DNA from: Macrostomum lignano
Lineage: Eukaryota
Length of the DNA: 64,000 bases
Direction of reading: 5' to 3'
Assembly: GCA_002269645.1 (NCBI GenBank)
Contig: NIVC01002954.1
Span: 1-64,000, forward strand
Each line of letters starts with the position of its first letter. Position 1 is the first letter of the stretch. The position numbers and the translations under genes are program-made. This document shows, piece by piece, positions 1 to 62,838 of this stretch. Under the pieces are notes generated by a model that ran no database searches, was not told the DNA's origin, and worked only from the letters and a program-made list of their open reading frames with translations.

Positions 1-2008
1 TTCCAAATATGCGGTCGCAGCAAAATCATATCCTGCTGATGTGCTACCACAAACGGCTGCGCCACGAATAAAATGTGCGGCATCTGCTCCTCCAGTTCGA
101 GCACCAAAACCCATAAGAGTTCCCGTTTTATCTAAATCTCCCAAGTTCCACTATCATATGTAAAAAAGTTTTGCCCAATTAGCGTATATGTATTAGCTGA
201 TACATTGTATGTGCTTATTTGATACCAAACTCTTTGATTTAAAATATTAATTTCAAAAAGATGCCAATCGCCGTTATCAATATTAGCATAGGTTATAGTT
301 TGATCTGCGTCATTAAGAACATCATTACGAGCTGTTGCACCGTCTGATTTTATATTGCTCCAAACAACCCCAACTCTATCATGCCATTCACTCGCAAACA
401 CAATCAAGCCGGCGCGGGTTGTTAACCCGGATCCAAATTCACTTGTTGGACGTTCGTGACAATATGCATAAAACCAAACAGCGTCAGCACCATCTCCTGT
501 AGTATTAGCAACTCGGAAATAGAAGGAGGCGGATATATTACGAAAATGGGTGAAATTAAATTGTAACGCTCCAGACCGACCCGATGCTTCATCAGTAATT
601 CTAGCACCATTTTGATAATCTATATAAGAAGCATCTCCAACAAAACTTCCTGTTGGAAAAATATCGCCGGCGGTGGTTGGGTTTTGATACCAGTCCAATT
701 GCAAATTACGGGCTCGTACAAAGCGGCATCAATTGCAGGTATTCCATCCAATTTTATTTTATCATTAAAAGACATTCGGCCATCCGCCGTTGTGTTACTC
801 GCGTGTCAACATAACCTTTAGTAACAACAGAACTGTTATCGTTTATATTAGAGACATTGTGATCGTATTGGAACCCATATCAATTGATTGATTAACTACT
901 CCAGATTTAAATCAAAATTGTAAAAGTCTGTCTATAAATCTGAAAGGTTGACAGACCCGGGTTTGTAGCACCCGAAGTTGATGTAAGACAGAACAATCTG
1001 AAATATGAATATGTTTTATCAAAATTTTGTGTGACATTAATTGTTTGAGTTGAGTTATTTATTGCTACAGAACTATCCACAGGTATTAATACGTCCCAAC
1101 TTGTATTGTCATTACTTCCCTCAAATCGCCATGATGCTGGATGCTCGGTTGAAGGTGATGGCCTACCACGTAAATCAATTTTATAACACATTATTGCGGA
1201 AGGGCATTGAACCTGAATCCAATAATCGGTTTGAGTATTATTTGTTGCCCAATCTGTTGAATCATTTCCATCAAACGCTTTCCAACTTGCAAAATCAGTT
1301 GTATTAAATGCAGTGCTTGCGGTTATTGCAAAACCATTTCCACTCCAATCTGCCATGGTAGGTATGTGACCAGTTTCAACCGTTTGGAATCGATCTGTTT
1401 TGGGGCTCCACCCCAACTAATTATCAACCTCGTTTTGGTATAAGAATCAGTTATATTCTTTTAAATTTAAGGAATTATCAACTTCAGTTTTGCTATAAGA
1501 ATCAGTTATATCTCTTTTTAAATTTAGGGAATTATCAACTTCGGTTTTGGTATAGAATCAGTTATATCTCTTTTTAAATTTAGGGAATTATCAACTTCAG
1601 TTTTGGTATAGGAATCAGCAACATTCCGTTTTAAATTTAGGGAATTATCAACTTCGGTTTTGGTATAAGAATCGGCCGTATTGCGTTTTAAATTTAATGA
1701 ATCATCTATTTGAGTTCGAGAATAAGAATCAGTTATATCTCTTTTTAAATTTAACCCATTGTCAACCTCTGTTTTGTATATGAATCGGCTACGTTCCGTT
1801 TTAAATTTAGGGAATTATCTATTTGAGTTTTGGTATAGGAATCTGCAACATTTCTTTTTAAATTTAGTTTAGTATCAACTTCACTTTTTTTATAACCTTC
1901 ATCTTCATTAATATATCGGTTATCTCCGAATGTAACACTTATTCCACCAGAAGTACCACCACCAGTACTTGATGTTCCGTTCCATGAGGGTGTTCCAGAA
2001 AATAACAT
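1..2008 (-). pseudogene. Putative fibre/receptor-binding protein, frameshifted: N-terminal anchor, ~8 x 19-aa shaft repeats, F5/8C discoidin domain, C-terminal L-type (ConA-like) lectin domain
   Basis: ORF 1751-2008 starts at AAAAATG. 57-bp repeats at ~1420-1880 encode DSYTKTEVDNSLNLKRDIT. ORF 907-1416 has WKAFDG..W / YWIQV / SWRFEGSND..W / YSYFRL (discoidin). Linker reads IDMGSNTI...VVTKGYVD. ORF 132-704 has GDGADAVWF, and the continuation below 131 reads GFGARTGG..H.I (legume-lectin-like). Several single-base frameshifts join the pieces. Confidence 0.7.
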
Positions 2009-2032
2009 TTTTTACTGTCTATTTTATAGAGT

Positions 2033-2477
2033 CTAAAATCGTATAATGCTTTGCATGATCATCTTAAATACTTCGGGGTTTACACGAGCTTCATTCGAAA
2101 GTCGATATAAAAAATACAACGCGCTTGCCCGCAATAACTTTTATCAAATGTTTGAAATTGTTCGTGATGATCTCCACATAAACGATTTTTAGTATGATTA
2201 AATTTGTCTTTTATTTCCTGTAACGGAGGAAGCGCGTATGAATCAAAAAAATAAACAAGTTTAGGTTTGAATAAACTGCTGACCAATGAACACCATTTTC
2301 TTTTGTTGTTTCAATATTAACAATGAAACATCCATATTGTGGTAAGTCTTTTATCTCATCTCGCATAACACATCTGAATGGTTTTATTTTTAACTGCCTC
2401 GCCCAATTTGTTAATTCGATATTGCTTGTTGTGTCCGTTCCATATCTTTGTTTAAAATCATCCCACGTCATGGTCAT
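2033..2477 (-). pseudogene. Adenain-like (Ulp1/adenoviral) cysteine maturation protease, frameshifted
   Basis: ORFs 2211-2477 and 2080-2286 together give NGVHWSAV...YFFDSYALPP...QFQTFDKSYCG (His, Asp, Gln and Cys of adenain-type proteases). Confidence 0.85.
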
Positions 2478-2507
2478 TTTATGTTCCTGAAAAACTCTTG
2501 GTTTTAG

Positions 2508-2681
2508 TTAGTTTGTAGGTGTGGGTTTTAACAATTCCTTTCTTATTTTATCAGCTTGTAACTGCCTTAATTTTGCTAGTTCTAGTTCGTAATTATCTTC
2601 AGCTTTTTTAACTTTTTCTGATTGTTTTTTTATTAAATTATTATCGTGCTTTGCACGCGAACATGTTGTTCGATTACCCAT
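2508..2681 (-). CDS. Small basic coiled-coil protein (57 aa) with MGNRTTCS N-terminus
   Basis: AAAAATG start like other element ORFs, open frame between penton and protease; no recognisable domain. Confidence 0.5.
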   Translation of the reverse strand: MGNRTTCSRAKHDNNLIKKQSEKVKKAEDNYELELAKLRQLQADKIRKELLKPTPTN

Positions 2682-2719
2682 TTTTACTATAGGAAACGGA
2701 CAAAGTCCGTGAACCAAAG

Positions 2720-3508
2720 GTTCGATAAACCTGTTTTATACGTAAAATTATTGTTATTGATTGCCCACCAAAACTTATTAATCTATCGCTTTCATCTACA
2801 ATCCTAATATAAATTGATTGAACGCTATATTGATTTAAAGGATAATATATTGGGGTTTGGGTGCAACAATCATTTTCTCTCCAATTGGAACAGCAAGAAA
2901 TGGGATTGAATAAATAATTCCACGTTGAACCAAAACTCCGTTATTATCTGTTATATAACCACCGTTTGATATGTCGGTTGTTATATTAATTGTATTAACT
3001 CCACCCTCAATATTTCCACTGTATCTCCGGTGCTTGATGTGGTAACTATTCGGGAATTAAATCCAAGTATGGTTCTGAGTGAATTTGCAATTGTGAAATC
3101 AACCTGATATCCGGATCCTAGTGATAGTGTGAATCTGCCAGACGGTAAATCAACACCTATAACAATTGCTCCTGTTACCCAATCACCATTAGTTGTTAAT
3201 TCTCCTTCTATATAAGCATTCAAATCAGTATAGCTATACGCTCCTGGGTTAACGCTAAATGTTGTCCAATTGGCTCCGGAATCTTTAGAATATCTAAATT
3301 GATTATTTGTTGCATTAATTAATTGAGGCATGTTGAAAACCGAAAATAGAATTAAACCTATTTGATAACTTAGGCTTTGATCAAGTTGTAATGGATCGCG
3401 CAATTGAATCCGTTGCTCGCTGGTTGTCATTATAAACTGTAATGTTGTACTAAATTTTGAATTAGTTCGATCTACCAATTGTTTTATAGTATTTAAATTT
3501 GTAGTCAT
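2720..3508 (-). pseudogene. Minor capsid protein (penton), frameshifted near 3015; 3' end approximate
   Basis: NNQFRYS...PGAYSYTDLN...SLRTILGF in ORF 2981-3547; continuation in another frame reads VNTINITTDISNGGY...IYIRIVDESDRLISFGGQSITIILRIK, typical of Polinton pentons. Confidence 0.8.
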
Positions 3509-3527
3509 TTTTATAGTGGAAATTGTG

Positions 3528-4320
3528 CTATGTCTCTTCTTCCTCATTATCTTCTTTTATCAAATTTGTTAAAATTCTATGTTTCCTTTCTAACCTCGGA
3601 TTGATATAAATATGTTTGTATTGGCTATCATCCCAAATTTTTTTACACATACTTTTAAATGGTTTTGCATCCAATCCGGGATTAAATCTAGCGTGAATAT
3701 TTTGTAGATCATAGTTATCTAAATCAAACATTACACAACAGCTAGCATTCTTTTTTATAATCGATTCTAATTCTCTAAAGGATTGAGTAAGATAAAAAGC
3801 TCCAATTCCATCTCCTCTACCACTAACAAAAATTTCCTTTTGCAATTCTTGATCACCGTCATTAATACAATCATCAAAAATAATTAGTGTTTTATCATGT
3901 TTTGGAATTTGATCATAGGCTAATCGGGTTGATACTCTAACAGTTGGGCGCGATCGGACGAAGTCCGCGACCCTTCGGGGCGATCGGTGATGTTTTCTGG
4001 CTGTTGTGCCATTGTTTTACATAAATCCTCAATGTCTGCTAGATTAAATCGCGGTTCGTCATCATCCTCATATTGCTCATATGCTCTTAACATTCTAAAC
4101 AAGACATCTTTTTTTAATTTGTTTTTTAATCCATGTTTAAGAAATTCATAATATTTTATTCTAGGTTTATTAGTATAAATTATTAAATTATTATAGTCTA
4201 ACATTCCATCTGTTGTTAATAAATCGTAAACAAAGTGTGTTTTTCCTTTACCTGATCCTCCGATTACTAAACAAAGAAAAGGATCATTTGGAAATATTTA
4301 TTGTGTTTTGCCTTTACCAT
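3528..4320 (-). pseudogene. A32/FtsK-like DNA packaging ATPase, frameshifted
   Basis: Walker A LVIGGSGKGKT (~4240-4275, upstream of the annotated ORF start), Walker B TLIIFDD (~3875-3895), then SGR...FYLTQS; split across ORFs 3920-4204 and 3528-3845. Confidence 0.88.
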
Positions 4321-4371
4321 TTTTAAAGAAATAATTTAAATAGGCGCGACGGTCGGAGACCTGCACTCATT

Positions 4372-5841
4372 TTACAATGGCGCGTCCCGAACAATCGTGC
4401 CATCAGCTTTAGCAATTGACATATATTCCTCTAGAAACAATACGTGTGCGTCTATGCCTGATTACCAGTTTTATTAATCTCTAACATATAATTAAGTCCA
4501 ATATTGGCTACGTTTTCTTTCTGTGCCGTTAGATCATAAACAACCACTGGATGAATGTTTAGAAACTCTGTGGGTGTACTGAGGGACGGCATACGCTTCA
4601 TTTTTGGCATAATCTTGATAATATTTTATAAAATCATTAACATTATTATTTGCAATATTTAGATTAAGAGGATCTTTAACCGGATAATATTGATCATCAA
4701 CCTGCAGGCGGATATTCTGAACATTAAACTCGTTAATAGCTGCAGCCGCATTGTCTGTTGCGGTGGCTGCTTGTTCTGCTATGGCACCGGATTGAAGCCA
4801 ATATAAATCCCCATTTGCTCTTTTACTCCTTCTATTTGTTATCTTAAACCAAACAAAAATATATCTCACCCGACGTTTTGATGTCAATATTTGCCACTGG
4901 AATGAATCCTGATTGTTATTAATGGTTCGCATAAAGTGTCTACGATTCAAATAAAATATTTCCTGATCATGCGTTAACTGATTATCGATGTGTTTTAAAG
5001 GTGGGGCTGTTGCCTCAATGGTTGGTACGACTGGTTGAATTGAATCTATACGAACTGCTATATCGGTTGAAATTGAGGTTCCATAAAGTATCCTAGGCTG
5101 ATATCCACCAGATATTTGCAACTGTATCCCAAATTTTAATCCTTTCCATACCCGATTTGGTGAAAAGAACCCAAATAGTGGAAAGATTGAAAAGTCTTGC
5201 TCATATGCTGTTGCTGTGGTTAAAACCGCTACTGGGAATTTATTCTGACGAGCTATAAAACCTGTATTAATATCTTTTGTATTAGTCATGGTGGTTACAA
5301 CTGGAACTATGTTTGTATTAAGGTAAACAATTAGCGCTGCAGTATCTGCACCGGCTGCGTTTTGTACATTAGGGAAAACTACTGCTTGACCGTTACCTTT
5401 ATCCGGCATCCACCCAACATTATCACCAACTTGTTTTGATAAATAAGTATAATTTAAATGTTTCAAAACTCCATTAATCTCTGCGGGGTTTGATGATGTC
5501 TCAACCTCAGCACCATTAACAGTTAGTTGAGCTTGGGAAAAACATTTATAAAACCAATCATTTTCTATTATTATTCCGGATCGATCTGCGATATCTCCGG
5601 CTGCAAGAGCAGTTCCATCATTTCTAGTATACAACCATCTAACGCGGAAAAACGCATTTTTCATATCCAATATAGTGTTGGTTGCGCCGATGTCAAAAGT
5701 TACCGTTCCAGTAGTAAAGTTATTTGAATTATCACTTGTTGGTAGGGTATAATTTAAATCTCTTACTCTGACCTCATTAATATACTGTCGGTGCTTTTTG
5801 AAATGAAATTTATCACTCCACATAGTTTTTGTTTCAGCCAT
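4372..5841 (-). pseudogene. Double-jelly-roll major capsid protein, C-terminus frameshifted
   Basis: 435-aa ORF with ILDMKNAFFRVRW, FSQAQLTVNGAEVE, RYIFVWF, NIRLQVDDQYYP. An alternative frame continues VVVYDLTAQKE... to a stop at ~4372. Position next to ATPase and penton fits. Confidence 0.8.
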
Positions 5842-5875
5842 TTTTTTAAGTTAAAAAAGTTTTTTATGTTAAAAA

Positions 5876-6541
5876 ATGAGTCAATTTATGGACGTTGATG
5901 GAGAGTTAGCGATTTATAAAGAGAAGCAAAGATATTCTGATTTTGTTAGAAATTTACAAAAAAGAAAGTTAGGAATACAATTAGCTGGCGAAAGATTTGC
6001 TGCTCCTTTTGTTAATCCTATTACTGGGAAAATTAGTGAACTAGAAAAAACAGATAAAGATCTTCTGGAAAAAATTGCTAAAAATACGGAGCCAAAAGAG
6101 GATGAAATTTTGGATGAGCCGCCTGCTTATGATGTTGATCAAGCACAATTGAGAATTGCAGAGATTAGACGTGCAGAGCGGGGCGATCGGGAACAATATC
6201 CAAGAGTACCAGCTAGTATTGCTGCGACAGATTTAGGTAATAATAATTATCGAATTGGTGGAGTTGATAAAAATCGAAATGAACTATATAGAGAATTGGG
6301 TGGAGCATATAATATTGTTATGAACCCTAGGGTAAAGTTTAACCCTGATTTATATACTAGGGATGAATTAATAAGTGCTAGAATTTTTTATGATGAGTTA
6401 GGAGGAGCTGTTAAAAATACCAGCTTGTATAAAAGGATTGTTAATTCTATAAATAACAAACCAGCTGTTGGTGATGGATTTAAAACTCCTAGAAAACTTG
6501 TTTTAGCTGCTGCGAAAGCTGCTGGACATACTGGTGTTTAA
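5876..6541 (+). CDS. Hypothetical element protein (221 aa), divergent from MCP
   Basis: Intact ORF with AAAAAATG start; no motif recognised. Confidence 0.7.
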   Translation: MSQFMDVDGELAIYKEKQRYSDFVRNLQKRKLGIQLAGERFAAPFVNPITGKISELEKTDKDLLEKIAKNTEPKEDEILDEPPAYDVDQAQLRIAEIRRAERGDREQYPRVPASIAATDLGNNNYRIGGVDKNRNELYRELGGAYNIVMNPRVKFNPDLYTRDELISARIFYDELGGAVKNTSLYKRIVNSINNKPAVGDGFKTPRKLVLAAAKAAGHTGV

Positions 6542-6569
6542 TTAATTGTTAAATTTATTTTTTTATAAA

Positions 6570-7187
6570 ATGGATGAAACAAAAATTTGTAATAAATGTA
6601 AAGAAGAGAAAATTTTGGATTATTTTAGATTTCGTAGAGATCAAAATAGATATTATAGTATTTGCAAACCTTGTGAGAGAAAGTATGATAAAGAATGGTA
6701 TGAGAAAAATCGTGAATATAAGCTTCAATGGAAAAAAGAATATGATAAAAATAATATAGAAAGGCGCAGAAAATATCAAAATGAAAGAAGATTAACTGAT
6801 GAAAATTACAAACTTATTTTAAACACACGAAATAGAATATATTCTCTTCTAAAATCTAATAATGCTCGAAAAAATAATCATACTGTTGATTACCTTGGTT
6901 GCTCAATTGAATTCTTTACTGATTGGTTAAATTTCACAAAACATTATTATGTGCCAAAAGATTATATTGGTGTTTTGCATGTTGACCATTTTATTCCTGC
7001 TTCATCTTTTGATTATCGCGATGAAGAACAAATTAAAAAGTCTGAAAATTGGAGAAATAAAAGATACTTAGTTGCTGTAGATAATATTTCAAAAAATGAT
7101 AAACAACCAACCATAGAAGAATTTGCAAAACAATTGGTGCTTTCATGTATTTTTAAGGCTATTAAAAATGAGCCAAATAGTGTTTGA
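6570..7187 (+). CDS. Free-standing HNH endonuclease with N-terminal CxxC..CxxC zinc finger
   Basis: AAAATG at 6570. CNKC...CKPC, basic helical region, then DYLGCS and LHVDHFIPASSFD...N.RN...LVAVDNISKNDK (ββα-Me HNH of the type found in large DNA viruses and phages). Stop overlaps the next gene's start. Confidence 0.85.
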   Translation: MDETKICNKCKEEKILDYFRFRRDQNRYYSICKPCERKYDKEWYEKNREYKLQWKKEYDKNNIERRRKYQNERRLTDENYKLILNTRNRIYSLLKSNNARKNNHTVDYLGCSIEFFTDWLNFTKHYYVPKDYIGVLHVDHFIPASSFDYRDEEQIKKSENWRNKRYLVAVDNISKNDKQPTIEEFAKQLVLSCIFKAIKNEPNSV

Positions 7188-8770
7188 AGGAGGATTGTTA
7201 GATGTTCAAAAAGGATTAACAAGCTTACCACCAATCTTTACTACTGGAAGGTATACAAATGAATTACACATCCCATCTTACAACTTCGCGGGTGGAGCTC
7301 GAGCTGTGCCCGAGTGGTAGATGCAAAGCTACTGCTAGTCACTATTAGTGGCAACACCAGCCGCTCACTCAATCCCCTAAAGCTTTAAGTACCACTTTGT
7401 TTTCGAAAGATTACAAAGGAACAGAGGTAACTCCTCTTCCCAACGGTAACAAGCTTGAAGATAAATATATGGGCAAGAGTGAATCGAAAACCTAACCTCA
7501 TATGACTTGAGTATGGTTGAGATGCAACGACTGTACGCTGGTGGGCTTGAAGGACTTAGTCAATCCTTATGATAGCTTAAGACACAGTCTACTCCTTTGT
7601 GAAAGCAAAGGTATAAAGGCCGGGTTGACTCGACTCGATCTCCGATTAAATCCTGATAATACTCCAAAAGCCGATTCAATTCCCATTAACGGTATTGATT
7701 GGTTAGCATACTATCATGACTTAGCATACAGAGATGCTGATAAGAACTCACCCGAGGAAGCATTAAGATTAAAACATGAAGCCGATCAAAAAATGATTCA
7801 AGGATTAGATAACTTGCAGGGATTATCAGTAGGTCAGAGATTAACTAGGTGGATGGTTAAAAAGATTTTGCAGTCTAAAGTTAAATTTGGTTTGGGAATT
7901 AATTATAATCAACATGGAAATAATTGTGTTGAGTGTTTGTTGTTAAGTGGCGGTGGGTTAAGTTCTGATGAGGCAAAGATTCTTCATAAAGAATATCGAA
8001 AACCTAAATTTTATAGAAAAATCATGAACTTCAAAAAGAACGAAATTTGGTATGCTGATTTAATGTCTATGCCGAACGAAAGAGGATATAAATATATCTT
8101 AACCATATTAGATGGTTTTACTCGATACGCGTGGGCTGTTCCTTTGAAATCCAAAAAAGGAGAGGATGTTGCTGCTGCTTTTAGAAGTCTTGGAGAAAAA
8201 AGCGAACGTTTGTGTGTTGACGAAGGAAAAGAATTTTACAATCCTCATATGTATAAATTATATCATTTTGAAAAAGGACAAGAAAGGAAAAAGGACGCGA
8301 ATGGGGAGTATATTAATAAAATTTATTCTATTTATGGAGAGAGTAAAAACGCATTAATAGAAAGATTTAATAGAACTTTAGGTAAGAAATTATGGTTTCA
8401 GTTTAGTCTTAATGGTAACCAAAAATGGGTAAAAATATTACCAGACGTAGTGAAAGATTATAACAATTCATATCATTCAGCTATAAAGATGACTCCTCAA
8501 CAAGCTTATAACAATCCTGAAAATGTTAGGGTTACTTTTGGAAAATTTGAAAAAAAGAAAACTAAAGATTTTAAAGTTGGTGATTCTGTTTATATCTATA
8601 AATGGAAAGATAAGTTTGAAAAAGGAAGAAAAGGATATTGGAAGATAAGTGAGAAATTTACTATCAGTAAAGTTTTAAATACCAATCCTACAACCTATAT
8701 AATTGCTGATAAGGACGGTGAAGAAATATTGGGTTCTTTTTATGAGAATCAGATATTATCTGCAAACTAA
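7168..8770 (+). CDS. Parvovirus-type phospholipase A2 (PLA2X) fused to retroviral-like DDE integrase; exon 1 7168-7293, exon 2 ~7620-8770
   Basis: Exon 1 ends HIPSYNFAG (Ca-loop). Exon 2 has (P)G..RLDLRL...PINGIDWLAYYHDLAY (PLA2 HDxxY), then KFGLG, then integrase WYADL / CVDEGKEF / IERFNRTL (D-D-E) and FKVGDSV...GSFYENQI. Confidence 0.88.
7294..7619 (+). ncRNA. Group I self-splicing intron (IC1/IE-like architecture with P5abc, no internal ORF)
   Basis: P1: exon CGGGU pairs with IGS GCCCG 7308-7312 (U·G at the splice site). P3: CACCAGC 7355-61 / GCUGGUG 7537-43. P4: UCACUC 7365-70 / GAGUGA 7477-82 with tandem AA J4/5. P5b has a GAAA loop. P7: A(C)GACUGU 7527-34 / ACAGUCU 7584-90 with the G-binding G-C pair. 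J8/7-S element UAAGACACAGUC. P9: CCUUUGU-GAAA-GCAAAGG 7594-7611. Terminal G at 7619 (or 7618). Confidence 0.9.
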
Positions 8771-8780
8771 GTTCGATCAG

Positions 8781-9005
8781 TTACTTAAGACAACATGGTA
8801 GTAAATTTTTTATAACAAACAAAAACAATATTATTACAATAATTGTTACTAATATTATTATTGACATTTGTTCAACTGTTATCAAACTTAAATTTTCATT
8901 AAGTTCATTAATTGGAACATTTCCGATGTAGGAATAGTTTACCTTCATTTTTTTATATATATTTTTCACAATAAATGTCGTTTCTGTTATAGAATAATAG
9001 TTCAT
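8781..9005 (-). CDS. Small membrane protein (74 aa, single C-terminal TM helix)
   Basis: AAAAAATG start; hydrophobic IIILVTIIVIILFLFVI followed by a Cys pair. Confidence 0.55.
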   Translation of the reverse strand: MNYYSITETTFIVKNIYKKMKVNYSYIGNVPINELNENLSLITVEQMSIIILVTIIVIILFLFVIKNLLPCCLK

Positions 9006-9021
9006 TTTTTAAATATTTTTT

Positions 9022-9336
9022 TCACATAAAAATTTCACTTTCATTCTCTGAATCACTGGTTTCATATGAACTATTTGTTGATTCGGAATCTGTTGATCTA
9101 ACCTCCCAATCATCCGAATTTAAATAATCTCCAAGTTGAAATATTAACTCACCCTCTTGTTCTAAATCATACATCTCATCTAGCTCTAATGGATAAAGTT
9201 TTAGGTCGTGCTTGTCGTCATATTTTAAATAAACTTCATCAATTATTCCATTCAAAATATGTTGTTTTATTATCTCTGCATTTTTAGCAACAGTCTCAAA
9301 AGCATCACTAACAGAAAAGGTGTAAACTCGGGTCAT
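9022..9336 (-). CDS. Small acidic protein (104 aa)
   Basis: AAAAATG start, intact ORF, D/E/S-rich tail. Confidence 0.55.
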   Translation of the reverse strand: MTRVYTFSVSDAFETVAKNAEIIKQHILNGIIDEVYLKYDDKHDLKLYPLELDEMYDLEQEGELIFQLGDYLNSDDWEVRSTDSESTNSSYETSDSENESEIFM

Positions 9337-9390
9337 TTTTAGTAACAGAAAAAGACCCTTCGCGCCTGCGGCGCGGGCTAGGGGTTATAG

Positions 9391-9661
9391 AGTAGTAGTA
9401 TATAAAAAGACGCTTCTAGATCAGACCTTATTTTAATGGCCGTTTGTAAGGTCTTAAGAGGGGGGACGCGAGGGGGGTGTTGGGGAGTGTTTGGAAGTGT
9501 TTGGAAGTGATTTTTATTGTTAGGGGTGATTATGGGTGATTAGATGTATTAATGGTGTTTAGATGTGTTTTTTTATTTACCCCCCGTGTCCCCCCTCTAG
9601 ACCCTTAAAACGGTCATTAAAAAAGTGCTCTGGGTCTAGAAGCGTCTTTTTATATACTACT
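9391..9661. repeat. Element terminus (TIR end) that is itself an imperfect inverted repeat
   Basis: 9394-9420 AGTAGTATATAAAAAGACGCTTCTAGA is the exact reverse complement of 9635-9661; inner arms ~9430-9478 and ~9580-9625 are imperfectly complementary. Confidence 0.85.
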
Positions 9662-22339: not shown

Positions 22340-44504
<22,165 letters not shown>

Positions 44505-48419: not shown

Positions 48420-48830
48420 GACTGAAATAAAAGTGCAGAATGTAATGGCATGCGAAAAATGATGGCATTTAGAAGGTAATAATTAATAGCTTTACCTGTG
48501 CGCCGCATATGGACTGAAATAAAAGTGCAGAATGTAATGGTGTGCGAAAAATGTTGGCATTTAGAAGGTAATAATTAATAGCTTTACCTGTGCGCCGCAT
48601 ATGGACTGAAATAAAAGTGCAGAATGTAATGGTGTGCGAAAAATGATGGCATTTAGAAGGTAATAATTAATAGCTTTACCTGTGCGCCGCATATGGACTG
48701 AAATAAAAGTGCAGAATGTAATGGCATGCGAAAAATGATGGCATTTAGAAGGTAATAATTAATAGCTTTACCTGTGCGCCGCATATGGACTGAAATAAAA
48801 GTGCAGAATATAATGGTGTGCGAAAAATGA
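48420..48830. repeat. 92-bp tandem repeat (~4.5 copies) inside the MULE
   Basis: GACTGAAATAAAAG recurs at 48420, 48512, 48604, 48696 and 48788. Confidence 0.95.
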
Positions 48831-49873
48831 TCAAAGACGCAAATGGCATCCCGGTCCCACACAGGGTGCTGTAGCCAGGTTGCACGCACGTATTCCGTTA
48901 GCTCTAGAAGGCGCTGATTCTCTCCTGCCATTGCAGTGCAGGCTGCAAGGCCATCTAGCATGCAAGGAGCCGGCAGACAAGGAATCGAAAGCAGCATGCG
49001 TACTAATAACTTTACCGCAGGGGAAGTCGCATACTGCACCTGCAATCCAAGAGACTGGACTCGCCTGAAAACAGCCTGGCAGTAATGAAAAAAGCAGCCA
49101 CGAACTTGGGCTGCTGGATAAACTAGCCGAATGGCTTGCCAGGCGGCCGACTCAAAGTCGCAGATAAATTGGACAGGTGCATTACCAGTCAACTCCCATA
49201 CCTGCCGGAAGCAGGCTTGGTAGTCAGCCTGAGCCTTAACTGACATCAGAAAGAATGCCAGTGGTACCAGACGCTCTTGATTGTCGCAGCGAATGGCTCC
49301 ATGAAGGCTGTACAGCTGCATGAAAGGCGCCTTGACAATGCCGAATGTGCCATCGCAGTGCAGAATGCGTCGTGTGGACAGGATCTCCCGTTGTGTCGCA
49401 GACATGAAGACAAAGTGCCGTCCATTTGTCTCTGGCACAGTAACGTCCTGCAAATGGAACTCTGGGGGCACGTGCTCGGGATCAACCTGAAAATGGATGT
49501 TAGCTGGCTCTGCGGGGCGGCTTTTTTTACGAGAATAATTAGCATTGCGACTTAAGGAATCTATATTAATCACTGCCTGCACTTCTTGGGGTAGCTCTCT
49601 TACTTTCTCCTCAGCGATGATGCGAGCAGATTTGAATGGCGCTCGCTTTGCTTCCGCTTTTACCTGAGCTGCAATACGTCGTTTTTTAACTGGCTGATCG
49701 ACTGGATCGCAGGTGTGCTCTTTCAAGGCTTCAATGGTTCCGTCTTGTCGCTTGACGGCTGAGCCCAGGCATTTCGGTGCAGTTTTGTTGCAACGGTAGT
49801 AAGTGTTGCCGTTTCGCCGGCTCTTGACATGCATCAAGCGGCCAAGATCACGCCTGACGTACTGCACCAGCAA
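48830..49873 (-). CDS. MULE transposase (FLYWCH-like zinc finger + DDE domain), main exon; C-terminal part not located
   Basis: YYRC..C...H.C; LHCDGTF...FMQLYSLHG; ICDFESA...VRGCFFHYCQAVFRRVQSLGL; YVRATWL...W. Confidence 0.9.
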
Positions 49874-58814: not shown

Positions 58815-61800
58815 ATGTCTCGGCGTAGCGATTCGCGTCACTCGTCGCCTTTGTCGGTTCGCTCGTCTGCAGCCTCGGTCACCGAGCCGTCGGATCGTCT
58901 GCTGAGGTCTGAGTGCCGCCGCCAAGGTGGCAAGCATTGCGGTCACGTGGAATGCCAGGTAAATCATTGCTGTGTATTATCTAGAATGTGTCTTGTCCAT
59001 CATGTGGAATGTGTCTTGTCCATCATGTGGAATGTGTCTTGTCCATCATGTGGAATGTGTCTTGTCCATCATGTGGAATGTGTCTTGTCCATCATGTGGA
59101 ATGTGTCTTGTCCATCATGTGGAGTGTGTCTTGTCCATCATGTGGAGAGTGTCTTGTCCATCATGTGGAATGTGTCTTGTCCATCATGTGGAATGTGTCT
59201 TGTCCATCATGTGGAGTGTGTCTTGTCCATCATGTGGAATGTGTCTTGTCCATCATGTGGAATGTGTCTTGTCCATTATGTGGAATGTGTCTTGTCCATC
59301 ATGTGGAGTGTGTCTTGTCCATCATGTGGAATGTGTCTTGTCCATCATGTGGAGTGTGTCTTGTCCATCATGTGGAGTGTGTCTTGTCCATCATGTGGAA
59401 TGTGTCTTGTCCATCATGTGGAGTGTGTCTTGTCCATCATGTGGAGTGTGTCTTGTCCATCATTTGCAGTGTGTCTTGTCCATCATGTGGAGTGTGTCTT
59501 GTCCATCATGTGGAGTGTGTCCTGTCCATCATGTGGAATGTGTCTTGTCCATCATGTGGAGTGTGTCTTGTCCATCATGTGGAATGTGTCTTGTCCATCA
59601 TGTGGAGTGTGTCTTGTCCATCATGTGGAATGTGTCTTGTCCATCATGTGGAGTGTGTCTCGTCCATCATGTGGAGTGTGTCTCGTCCATCATGTGGAAT
59701 GTGTCTCGTCCATCATGTGGAGTGTGTCCTGTCCATCATGTGGAGTGTGTCTTGCCCATCATGTGGAATGTGTCTTGCCCATCATGTGGAATGTGTCTTG
59801 CCCATCATGTGGAATGTGTCTTGTCCATCATGTGGAATGTGTCTTTTCCATCATGTGGAATGTGTCTTGCCCTTCATGTGGAATGTGTCCCACAGGTCCA
59901 TATAACCTGAAGACTCATTAGTCATCGGTCTAGCGCTCTGCCATAAATATGCCTCATAAACATAACTCCGCAGGTGCGCTCGTCTCTATCCCGCCGATCA
60001 GGGGGTCATCAGCATGACCATGCCGCTCCAAGCCAGACGGCGACGCCCTCGTCTCTGTCCCCGACGCTGTCCACCGTATCGTCGTCCATAACAGACGCCC
60101 CAGCCGCCGTGGCTGCTGTTGGCAGCGTTGGAAATCTTCGTGGCTATCGAAATCGACGCATAGTAGAGAGCGCTGCAAGCGGCTCTTTGACTACTACGTC
60201 TACTAGAACTACTACTACTACTACTTATACTACTAGGCGAGTAGTAAGAAGCGGAACTAGCGCTAGCGGCAGTGTCAGCAATAGTGGATTCGTTGGCCTG
60301 CGATCGCGGCTAAGCTTTAGCAACAATAATAGCAACAGAAGCAGCCAAGAAGAGGAAGACGAAGAACTTCAAGAAGATGTCGACCAGCAGTTGGTTGCTT
60401 CTGAAAGCAGCAGCAAAATTGGCAGTTTTAGACGAATGTTAAGCGGCGGTTTCAGTTCCTTGTTGTGGAGCAGCAATAGTAATAACAGCAACAAGCGACA
60501 GACAGTGGAAGCTGAGGATGAGAGAGATATTGATGAAGCGCAGCTCAGCGATGCGGACGATCTGGTTATGGAGAAAGGGTCTATTGAAGCTCGCCTCGGC
60601 ACTAAAGACAATTTAGTGCCTGTTTATAGTGACCAGCTGGCCTCCACTGCCGCCGAGGACGCTGCGGGTGGCGTTGCCATGGAAACCAGAGCGAGAAGGC
60701 CAAGTCTAATTAGACGCGCGACTCATCCGTTGCTATGGTTACTTGGCGCGATCTATTATTTTGCTAAGCTGACTTTGAATCGTACTGCTAACAAATTATC
60801 AAACACAGCAAAGCATACGGTTGCCATGGTAACCAGTGGAATTGCGCTGTTATTAAATTCGGCACGCGCTGCTAGCTGCAGACTGGCAACAGGTATTGGT
60901 CAAGTTGGCGGCGGTATTAGGCGCGGATTCGCCAATGCGTTCGCTATGACTGTCGGTTCTGTTGCTTCCATGCTGAGGTACGCCAACAGGGCGACTCTTG
61001 TAGCCACTGCCTCTACTAAGTCCATAGCTGGTTGCGTCCTGCAGTACTCTGCGTCCGCAGTTCAAACCTTGGTGCTAACTACTCGAGAAAGAACCTATCG
61101 CAGTTTTGTTTTGATTAGTCCAAGCCGCAACAGGCACTTCTCCTGCTTGTGCTTTCTTGTCTTGCTTCTGCTATTGCTGCTGATTGTAATTGGTCTTCTG
61201 CTTTGGCTGGTGCCGACTAGTTCTGGGTACTACTCAAAACTGTCGCCGTCAGTCAGTCGGGCAGCAATCCGAGAGTCTGTCTCATCAGCTAGCAAGTCTG
61301 TTGCCAAGTTTGCTAGCCAAGCTTGGCATGTTGCCAACTCCGCTTCTAACTGCCTGTTGCTATGGTTACGCGATAGTTTTGTTGCTATAGCAACCATGGC
61401 TGCTAGCTTGGTGCCAACTTGGCCAGCTACTAATTTATCGACAGAGTCGAAGATTCCTTCGTCAGCTACGCCGCTGCCATCGCCGACTCCTGCTAGTGAG
61501 ACTGGCGCTGCCGCCAGTCCTGGCTGCTGTGGCGGCGTTGATCTGTCAGCTCTGGAACTGCAGGTGTCCGGTCTGCGCACCGCTGTAGCTGATCTTCAAC
61601 AGCAACGTCTTGATGCTGCTGCTGCCGCTGCGGCTACCACTTCTGCCGCCGCAGTTGATGTAGCCTCCATTGAAACTGTGCAGACTCTTGCTAACCAGCT
61701 CAAACAGTTGGAGCTGCGCTTTGCCAATACGGAAGCATCCACGGAGAAACTGTCTGCTTCGGTTAAGCTAGCAGTTGAGCAGTCGGCCGCCGCTCGTTCA

Positions 61801-62838
61801 GCTGATTCTGCCGAAGCTCTGTCAGCTTCTGTATCGTCAAAACTGGCCAGCGTCACGTCTCAGGTTGACTCCATTGCTCAGCGTTTGAGTCGCCAATTGG
61901 ATGAGACAGCGGCTACAGCCGACGCAGCCGCCGCCGCCTCAGCCGCCGCTGTGGCCGCTGTCAACCAATCAGAGTCCGCCAGGCGCTTAGAGCTAGCCAG
62001 CCTGCGCGCCGATCTAAGCAGACTAGCCAATCAGCATCGGAGATATTTCATCACAGTGTGGAATCGTGTACAATTATTGTCTGAATCGAATGCCGACTTG
62101 TTAGCTAGGAAAGATTCCGATTTTAAACAACAGCAACAGCAGCAAAAACAATTAGCAGATATTGAAGAGCTGCGAAAATCGGTGCTAGAATTTCAAACTC
62201 GTCTTAATCGATTAGAATCTGTTCAAGCTTCCATTTCTACTGGCAGCAGTAGTATGAGTGGCATGTCAGATTCTAAATCGGCCCGATGCCAATCGCCAGC
62301 CGATGAACTGGCAGATTTTGCTTTGCACACAGCCGGCGGCTATGTTGTCAGCATCCGGTGCACCAAGGCCTATACAGTTAAACGATCCTATTTCCACCTG
62401 TTCGGCGTACCTGTATTCTCCTATTCAAATGGGCCCAACGTTGCCCTACAGCCTGGCCTGCAGCTGGGCGAGTGCTGGCCATTCCTAGGCTTCCCCGGTC
62501 ACGTGATTGTCCGCCTGGCCGCGCCCGCCCGCGTCAGTCACGTGACCATTGATCACGTGCCGCGCAGCCTGACCTACAACGGGTCGGCGGACAGTGCGCC
62601 AAAGAATTTCTCAATCTACGGTCTGGTTAACGAGCAGGACTCATTTCAGCAGGCTCAGTTGCTGGGCGATTTTTCCTATGATGCCGATAAGGGACCGTCT
62701 AGCCAGACCTTCGCCATTCCGGCCGATAGTCCTCATCGCGATAGAGTCTATCCAGCTGTTGAACTCGTGATCCGCTCCAATCACGGAGCTGAGCACACCT
62801 GCCTATACCGGTTTCGGGTGCACGGCAGTTTGGTTTAG
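58815..62838 (+). CDS. SUN-domain inner nuclear membrane protein (SUN1/2, UNC-84-like); exons 58815-58958 and 59974-62838
   Basis: Phase-0 GT/AG intron. S/T-rich nucleoplasmic N-terminus, TM LCFLVLLLLLLLIVIGLLLWLV, coiled coils, C-terminal SUN domain DFAL..AGG.VV...GECWPF.G...VTIDH..SAPKNF..YG...SNHGAEHTCLYRFRVHG. Confidence 0.93.
58975..59890. repeat. 23-bp intronic minisatellite GTGTCTTGTCCATCATGTGGA(A/G)T
   Basis: Starts ~16 nt after the SUN exon-1 donor. Confidence 0.96.

Follow-up and report, generated by a model that had tools for sequence, protein, structure and literature searches.

Introduction

Nuclear group I introns of subgroups IC1 and IE, such as Tetrahymena Tth.L1925, share a P1-P9 core with a G-C binding pair in P7 and are described as confined to the rRNA genes of microbial eukaryotes (PMC3679873). 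The IC1 introns have an extended P5 scaffold, and a nuclease gene sits near the P2 periphery in some copies and is missing from others (PMC3679873). In animals, group I introns are described as absent except in basal lineages and five sharks (PMC10964413). The hexacoral mitochondrial intron ND5-717, from a non-bilaterian animal, ends in A and is still spliced (PMC6545197). In Polinton-like viruses, one report confines matches to the Rfam group I model RF00028 to three protist groups; elements of Rhodomonas lacustris, Paulinella micropora and Desmodesmus armatus carry a group I intron of ~300-380 nt in a gene of ~50 aa upstream of the capsid gene, with no nuclease identified (PMC12220804).

Homing enzymes of the restriction fold have long recognition sites. 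I-Bth0305I is reportedly one such endonuclease. The PD-(D/E)xK-type enzyme I-Ssp6803I is encoded in a group I intron that splits its target (PMC3424549). In the collaborative homing of bacteriophages, a free-standing nuclease lies directly upstream of an intron without an ORF, an arrangement proposed as the forerunner of the intron-encoded form (summarised in PMC11296320).

Here we describe a group I intron in a 64,000-nt stretch of Macrostomum lignano DNA (contig NIVC01002954.1, positions 1 to 64,000; hereafter the window). It shares with the nuclear rDNA introns the P1-P9 core, the P7 binding pair, the extended P5 scaffold and, in related copies, a nuclease gene in the 5' periphery; unlike them, it lies in a protein-coding viral gene in an animal nucleus, and the nuclease is of restriction type. 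Like the protist introns, it is carried by an integrated Polinton-type element, but here the host is an animal, the interrupted gene encodes a PLA2-integrase, the splice sites are defined, and a nuclease and site avoidance are present. The preliminary description of this DNA had read the element as a vehicle for a ribozyme; that reading is supported for an animal, although such introns had already been reported in protist Polinton-like viruses (PMC12220804). In contrast to the long-site homing enzymes, the nuclease has its nearest counterparts among short-site type II enzymes (Eco47II family, EcoO109I fold), and a 5-bp word is avoided in the carrier genome. Whereas collaborative homing is described in phages, both of its states occur here in an animal Polinton with one enzyme family, and whereas ND5-717 is mitochondrial, the A ending is here a polymorphism within one type of nuclear viral intron.

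Structure of the intron

We found the PLA2-integrase gene of the window in two exons, and the intron between them folds into the following elements ("row" refers to the window's row of the intron alignment).

7168..7293, + strand: first exon (42 codons) of the PLA2-integrase gene; its last codon is the Gly of a conserved Gly-Pro
7294..7619, + strand: group I intron without internal ORF; its length up to the homologous omega-G (7619) is 326 nt
7289..7312 (7289-7294/7307-7312), + strand: P1, exon end with internal guide, U7293·G7308 at the 5' splice site
7355..7593, + strand: catalytic core with P3, P4, P5abc, P6, P7 and P8
7355-61/7537-43, + strand: P3, 7 bp, paired in the row
7365-70/7477-82, + strand: P4, 6 bp, fully paired in the row
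7383-7460, + strand: P5abc; P5a, P5b and P5c pair in the row
7483-85/7521-23, + strand: P6; P6 and P6a pair in the row
7527-33/7585-90, + strand: P7, with G7529-C7589, bulged C7528 and A7527-U7590
7544-7577, + strand: P8, paired in the row
7592..7619, + strand: P9.0 (C7592-G7618, U7593-A7617), P9 with GAAA loop, and omega-G 7619
7594-7600/7605-7611, + strand: P9, GAAA loop
7620..8770, + strand: exon 2, the rest of the PLA2-like domain and the rve integrase (rve E 1e-7; PLA2 E 0.011)

RF00028 matched 7207-7611 (E 8.2e-7; 521 nt searched). The covariance-model hit that the preliminary description had named as a check was found at 33.3 bits, under the gathering score of 50 bits, which is a library cut-off and not a biological criterion. 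Because of this shortfall, a scan of the whole window at the gathering cut-off gave no group I intron match. Relatives at the same site score 61-91 bits. The window type has a rewired P3/P4/P6 core in which J3/4, J6/7 and P4 depart from the Rfam consensus; with a model built from the intron family, it scores 144.9 bits, by construction. The folding energy by itself says little (z -2.3; 4 of 100 shuffles were equally stable). The strong evidence comes from comparison.

The 16 introns compared represent only about four independent lineages, and the structure applied to them was taken from the window intron. Pairing was found in 96.6% of 880 cells, and double changes in 29 of the 55 pairs. None of 500 shuffles reached this level, and registers slid out of place gave 40-54% pairing. 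P4 and P5 were excluded from the count owing to a one-column misregister by MAFFT, P4 being checked row by row only. Compensatory changes occur in P3, P6 and P7; P7 varies at 4 of its 6 pairs, and its G-C binding pair is present in 15 of the 16 introns. In P1, the exon base at -4 is G in 24/24 window-type copies, opposite a guide C (22 perfect), and A in 40/40 copies of the second and third intron types described below, opposite a guide U that the search pattern itself had specified; parsing left out 2 of the 28 type-3 loci. The geometry of P9.0 is the same in types 2 and 3 and in a viral relative (L076), with other base pairs.

The window intron has the U·G pair of P1, the P3-P7 pseudoknot with the G-C binding pair and bulge, and a P4-P6 domain; its terminal G7619 follows P9.0 and has a 10-bp P10 in the usual register (-11.4 kcal/mol). 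An ordinary spliceosomal intron was rejected on the ends, which are not GT-AG, and a 5' splice site at U7299 on its position in the P1 loop. We regard it as confirmed at the level of sequence comparison that 7294-7619 is a real group I intron. The helices of the preliminary description (P1, P3, P4, P5abc, P7, P9 and P9.0) lie where it had placed them, and covariation, counted outside P4 and P5, supports the structure.

P5abc is common to all types, and in the window it has an A-rich bulge. Its detailed motifs presumably resemble those of the Tetrahymena intron. The presence of the extension in all types points to subgroup IC1 (compare PMC3679873).

One site for several intron types

A DNA search of the 764-Mb genome, in which 40 of 162 candidates were scored, yielded 51 matches. 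Among them are 24 loci whose window-type intron is 92-100% identical, 14 loci that carry a second type, and a single intronless one. The intronless copy (C3967, locus L031) has a single open 424-aa frame across the site, which lies between the Gly and Pro codons in the PLA2 loop of the PLA2-integrase gene; it is an intron-minus allele of the kind that the preliminary description had envisaged. RF00028, searched genome-wide, gave 28 matches at 72-91 bits (28 candidates scored), which form a third type of 836-895 nt. Compared with the intronless protein, the exon-1 match of type 3 ends at residue 42 in 27/28 copies and the exon-2 match begins at residue 43 in 25/28. A 17-nt P5a motif had 161 matches in the genome and none for its reversed control; all 16 of those sampled were type-2 introns at the same site. 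Removal of the intron restores the reading frame in types 2 and 3, and likewise in IMG/VR contig L076, whose protein is 35% identical and whose fourth kind of intron, missed by Rfam, interrupts the same codon. The copies are not independent, many being near-identical, possibly redundant in the assembly, and recombining.

On these comparisons, the three types and the L076 virus use one site. The single intron of the preliminary description holds, but that account had missed the three-type family, the A-ending copies and the nuclease with its site avoidance. An 18-nt core motif matched IMG/VR twice, neither time with an intron, and a single-protein search of IMG/VR returned no relative. A family model revealed no intron in 80 metagenome loci or 5 other viral loci, most of which lack the PLA2 part. 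Two empty-site patterns matched the genome once and not at all; these were exact degenerate patterns, so the counts are lower bounds. Two contigs with two motif matches each, considered as a possible second intron site, proved to hold further copies at the same site.

Three observations concern the spread of the introns. Among L001-L024, a single intron type follows 13 different exon-1 ends, and the four codons next to its 3' junction are invariant, which suggests gene conversion between elements. Four PLA2-integrase proteins from outside this genome (P0003, P0033, P0039 and P0042) start in an in-frame intron 3' end or right at the Pro that follows the site, a hint that more distant Polintons also have introns at this position. 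In L024 (1890-2716), the P8 region of a window-type intron holds an insertion of ~835 nt. It has GGNCC pairs close to each end and is probably a mobile element of the host; inspection by eye for a nuclease gene within it found no such ORF.

The 3' splice site and the reading frame

By homology, G7619 would be the 3' splice site of the window. The frame relative to this omega-G breaks within the first 8 nt of exon 2, a stretch with 2 nt more than its counterpart in the intronless copy, and runs into a stop. The omega-G of the preliminary description is retained. The break is found in 24/24 window-type copies and is thus not a one-off indel; G7618, the alternative in that description, does lie in frame, as do G7624 and G7627. 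A contig from a public run spans both window-type junctions (7227-7673; one other letter, no gaps). Hence, the junction is not an assembly error.

G7627 has an 8-bp P10 of its own (-10.8 kcal/mol) that competes for the same guide as the P10 of G7619. Splicing of the window copy at G7619 with a stop soon after has an even chance in our estimation, and so does the alternative, in which one of the in-frame Gs (7627, 7618 or 7624) is used or the frame is recoded. The window lineage may exploit the competition between these P10 helices to switch between a truncated product and one in frame. At 7621-7637, a 7-bp hairpin is possible over the frame break, overlapping both helices.

An open exon-2 frame of 370 codons or more is kept in 18/24 window-type and 10/14 type-2 copies. 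Over 85 exon-2 codons, variants of the window type number 45 silent and 15 replacing (sites 53 to 202), in a count that kept 23 of 24 window-type copies and 35 of 39 rows and into which recombination can import such variants. Those private to the window type number 12 silent and 9 replacing.

We found that 16 of 30 type-2 introns end in A and not in G (L030, L032-L037, L039, L040 and 7 of L161-L176). In these, the G-C pair of P7 is intact and the codons after the intron show silent variation.

Contigs of four presumed-RNA public runs (4 of 23), compared with 6900-8100, had no window-type joint and are uninformative on expression. A joint of 7292 to 7644 in one public run was rejected as evidence of splicing because its letters are those of the intronless DNA allele, which has a base other than U at the end of exon 1.

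Eco47II-like nucleases inside and beside the introns

Type-3 introns hold an ORF in the 5' peripheral region, upstream of P3 and running into the core, which is full length in 13 of 26 introns. Its product matched Pfam RE_Eco47II (E 3e-6, above the cut-off); PDB sequence searches and NCBIfam gave nothing useful. The structural model (pLDDT 92) covers ~158 aa with no extra DNA-binding domain, and its best Foldseek match was EcoO109I (E 2e-4, TMq 0.65-0.71), at 13-14% sequence identity, with DdmD at rank 2 and AvaII at rank 7. D65, E76 and K78 are invariant in 14 nuclease sequences. The ORF is thus predicted to encode a PD-(D/E)xK fold with its catalytic residues. Eco47II cuts GGNCC (PMC10305163), and the sites of EcoO109I and AvaII are RGGNCCY and GGWCC, respectively (PMC12944874). 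By analogy with these enzymes, we infer that the type-3 nuclease recognises GGNCC.

Related genes also occur outside the intron. In the slot upstream of exon 1, the 38 window-type and type-2 copies have an HNH gene (29 copies) or an Eco47II-like gene (9 copies), never both; the window and the intronless copy have HNH. The free-standing and intron-encoded Eco47II-like nucleases are 60-69% identical. Nuclease matches in the genome number 111, and among those listed none is on the window's contig or C3967. Eight nuclease matches without a listed intron motif were spot-checked; none lay beside an empty site, and four were uninformative. Of 17 nuclease homologues from outside, 10 read on into ribozyme sequence, as judged by eye. 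In L045 (1092-1778), the nuclease ORF runs ~70 codons into the ribozyme core, a region in which the coding sequence overlaps the RNA structure. The upstream ORF of L076 is GIY-YIG-like. No partner methyltransferase was noticed among the ORFs listed for the elements.

The carrier elements avoid GGNCC

Codons for Gly followed by Pro always spell GGNCC. Hence, the conserved Gly-Pro forces a GGNCC site on the gene, and the intron splits it. The expectation that this word matters came from the Pfam name and was formed before counting.

We found no GGNCC in the window element against 12.1 expected (P 6e-6), and it is the most depleted of the 256 gapped 5-mers. It also ranks first of 256 in the type-3 element (0 against 11.2; P 1e-5) and in the left part of C3967 (1 against 8.7); in L076, the count of 0 against 2.4 is not significant alone. 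A stricter model lowers the expectations to 5.8 for the window element, 8.3 for the left part of C3967 and 6.6 for the type-3 element. Host DNA controls were not depleted (21 against 18.1 and 38 against 34.3), and three intronless PLA2-bearing relatives had 11 against 11.9. Unrelated integrase loci, pooled, had 322 against 406 (rank 6 of 256), or 322 against 323 under the stricter model.

The same avoidance appears in protein. Gly-Pro is absent from 4158 aa of element ORFs (6.8 expected) and from 2834 aa (5.3 expected), and Pro-Gly occurs 5 and 7 times in the same ORFs. In homologous proteins after residue 120, Gly-Pro was seen 15 times against 46 expected, with Pro-Gly equally scarce.

Of 38 loci of 3.2-4.0 kb, 34 lack GGNCC; the exceptions are L024, with its sites in the insertion, L034, L022 and L028. 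The intronless element has two GGNCC sites, one of which is the empty intron site, and the type-3 copy L055 has one just after the intron. The second most depleted word is CTNAG (about 0.35-0.6 of expected in window 1-9661, L073 and L177), which may reflect another nuclease or a general avoidance of CTAG-type words.

Carrier element and host genome

Polintons (Mavericks) have terminal repeats with AGTAGT ends and a 6-bp target-site duplication. The sister copy C3967 is 17,173 bp long, has AGTAGT-type ends and carries the same 6-mer, a 6-bp target-site duplication, on both flanks. Its family B polymerase lies in three ORFs, in which a direct Pfam PolB match was not obtained; their homologues carry PF03175, and one is named DNA-directed DNA polymerase. 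The window lacks the polymerase gene, and its contig starts mid-element. The C3967 features agree with the Maverick-Polinton definition quoted in PMC12220804. With pPolB and the rve integrase, a canonical Polinton/Maverick is supported as the carrier; the preliminary description was right about an integrated virus-like element, and its label of Polinton-like virus was too loose. The remaining parts of the element in the window are as follows.

3528..4297, - strand: packaging ATPase-like gene in two frames (Pox_A32 E 0.007-0.009, below the cut-off)
4534..5841, - strand: probable double jelly-roll major capsid protein, a lead only; C-end shorter than in L031
6570..7187, + strand: free-standing HNH/endonuclease VII-like ORF (PHROG endonuclease VII E 3e-11), overlapping the start of exon 1
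9393..9661, no strand assigned: right Polinton terminus, ending ACTACT; host minisatellite from 9662; the contig begins inside the element, so its left part is missing

The capsid candidate has Atlas neighbours at 0.97-0.98 with DJR/Capsid_N on 10-24% of members, and its recognition value is below the threshold of the tool. For a protease, there is a candidate by eye only, with no family match. An F5/8 type C (discoidin) domain ORF (907-1416, - strand) and a 57-nt coding tandem repeat (1419-1895) are possibly a fibre or receptor-binding gene. The termini of ~270 nt (window 9393-9661; L031:4896-5161; L073:1889-2154) are each flanked in turn by inverted arms, with an AGTAGT-type end on both sides. 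The polymerase of L073 (4345-7837), broken into three ORFs, contains a domain like endonuclease VII (Pfam E 4e-7); the same was reported for nematode pPolB2 (10.1101/2023.08.22.554363).

The genome has 86 Wnt exon matches and 18 troponin matches. Troponin marks bilaterians. Contigs C67, C506 and C952 carry both Wnt exons and the intron motif, which supports the claim of a group I intron inside a protein-encoding gene of an integrated dsDNA virus-like element in an animal nuclear genome. The miRNA markers mir-2 and mir-124 had no matches in the genome and are uninformative. The host part of the window is very rich in minisatellites and holds a SUN-domain ORF of 954 aa (59974-62838, + strand), a MULE transposase (48653-49873, - strand) and a diacylglycerol kinase domain (37955-38923, + strand).

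Discussion

We propose, at a probability of about 70%, that these introns combine homing with self-immunity through a short-site GGNCC nuclease, at a fixed Gly-Pro site. The intact, covarying structure suggests that the introns would be removed from the transcript by two-step group I splicing. They would spread and persist by means of a restriction-enzyme-like PD-(D/E)xK nuclease with a putative GGNCC specificity, whose gene is inside the type-3 intron or, in some copies, free-standing upstream of exon 1. The elements have been purged of GGNCC almost everywhere, and with it of Gly-Pro dipeptides. The one Gly-Pro that the protein family conserves encodes the word, as the genetic code dictates, and the intron splits it, so the element would be immune; intronless rivals would be cut at the site and then converted or destroyed. 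The intron thus splits the one spot in its gene that the neighbouring nuclease would probably cut. The window copy, which has no Eco47II-like nuclease, would use the enzyme in trans or the upstream HNH gene. A 5-bp cutter would also hit host DNA, so expression would be expected only in the viral phase. The two nuclease positions fit the route that has been suggested to lead from collaborative homing to an enzyme encoded in the intron (PMC11296320).

Several observations count against this model. Fold and family do not fix specificity, and the second Foldseek match is DdmD. A 5-bp enzyme that also cuts the host is difficult to reconcile with quiet integration, unless it is expressed in the viral phase alone. 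The window, most copies (29/38) and the intronless copy have HNH in place of the Eco47II-like nuclease. Finally, the frame break of the window type is unexplained by the model, and 16 of 30 type-2 copies end in A.

If the intron were truly mobile but served by an ordinary homing nuclease with a long target, the GGNCC avoidance would be a relic or imposed from outside, for example by the restriction enzyme of a co-infecting large DNA virus. PD-(D/E)xK homing enzymes with long sites do exist (I-Ssp6803I, 17 bp; PMC3424549), a short-site cutter should harm the host, and the Atlas cluster of Eco47II-like proteins is mostly viral, with Nucleocytoviricota commonest (score 0.90, a lead only). However, in two divergent Polinton families of this genome the avoided word is exactly what the enzyme family of the element itself predicts; the enzyme has only ~158 aa and no extra DNA-binding domain in its model; and intronless relatives do not avoid GGNCC (11 against 11.9). 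We consider ordinary homing unlikely.

The introns could also be non-autonomous relics, either fossils of a virus of another host or ribozymes that depend on host proteins, with the window-type and A-ending copies as passively spreading dead ends. Such decay would account for the frame break in all 24 window-type copies, the A endings and a window core that departs from the Rfam consensus (33 bits), but the core changes are compensatory in P3, P6 and P7, exon 2 has stayed open in most copies of both types, its window-type variants are mostly silent (45 to 15, on sites of 53 to 202), and A-ending introns are spliced exactly in vivo in hexacoral mitochondria (PMC6545197); we give this reading little credence. 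An artefact, be it a chance structure or contigs from a symbiont or contaminant, is largely refuted already and has next to no chance of being correct: the window's own Rfam score is below the cut-off, yet the covariation, the intronless allele, the 161 motif matches against none reversed, the 6-bp target-site duplication and the three contigs that also carry Wnt exons all speak against it.

Homing with self-immunity through a GGNCC nuclease thus remains our preferred reading. In a literature scope that left out most subscription journals, we found no earlier account of group I introns in Polintons of animals, nor of an intron combined with a short-site nuclease and with avoidance of sites. 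What is new is the Eco47II/EcoO109I-like nuclease of type 3, the same gene upstream elsewhere, the avoidance of GGNCC and the position of the intron. One extension, which we would as readily doubt as defend, is that an animal DNA virus practises restriction without a methylase: the GGNCC nuclease would be turned against rivals, perhaps the host, with the word purged from the viral genome and proteome and the one unavoidable site plugged by a ribozyme that would splice itself out of a nuclear mRNA.

A multi-copy family in mRNA genes of a bilaterian nucleus would overturn the statements that nuclear group I introns occur only in rRNA genes and that animals largely lack them (PMC3679873, PMC10964413). 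It makes testable the long-standing question of whether a group I ribozyme can splice from mRNA in an animal cell, and it offers natural variants for this: G- and A-ending introns, a rewired core, and a nuclease inside or beside the intron. Linked in this way, a short-site nuclease, genome-wide avoidance of its site and the position of the intron would represent an uncommon kind of homing, and likewise of self/non-self discrimination among viruses of animals.
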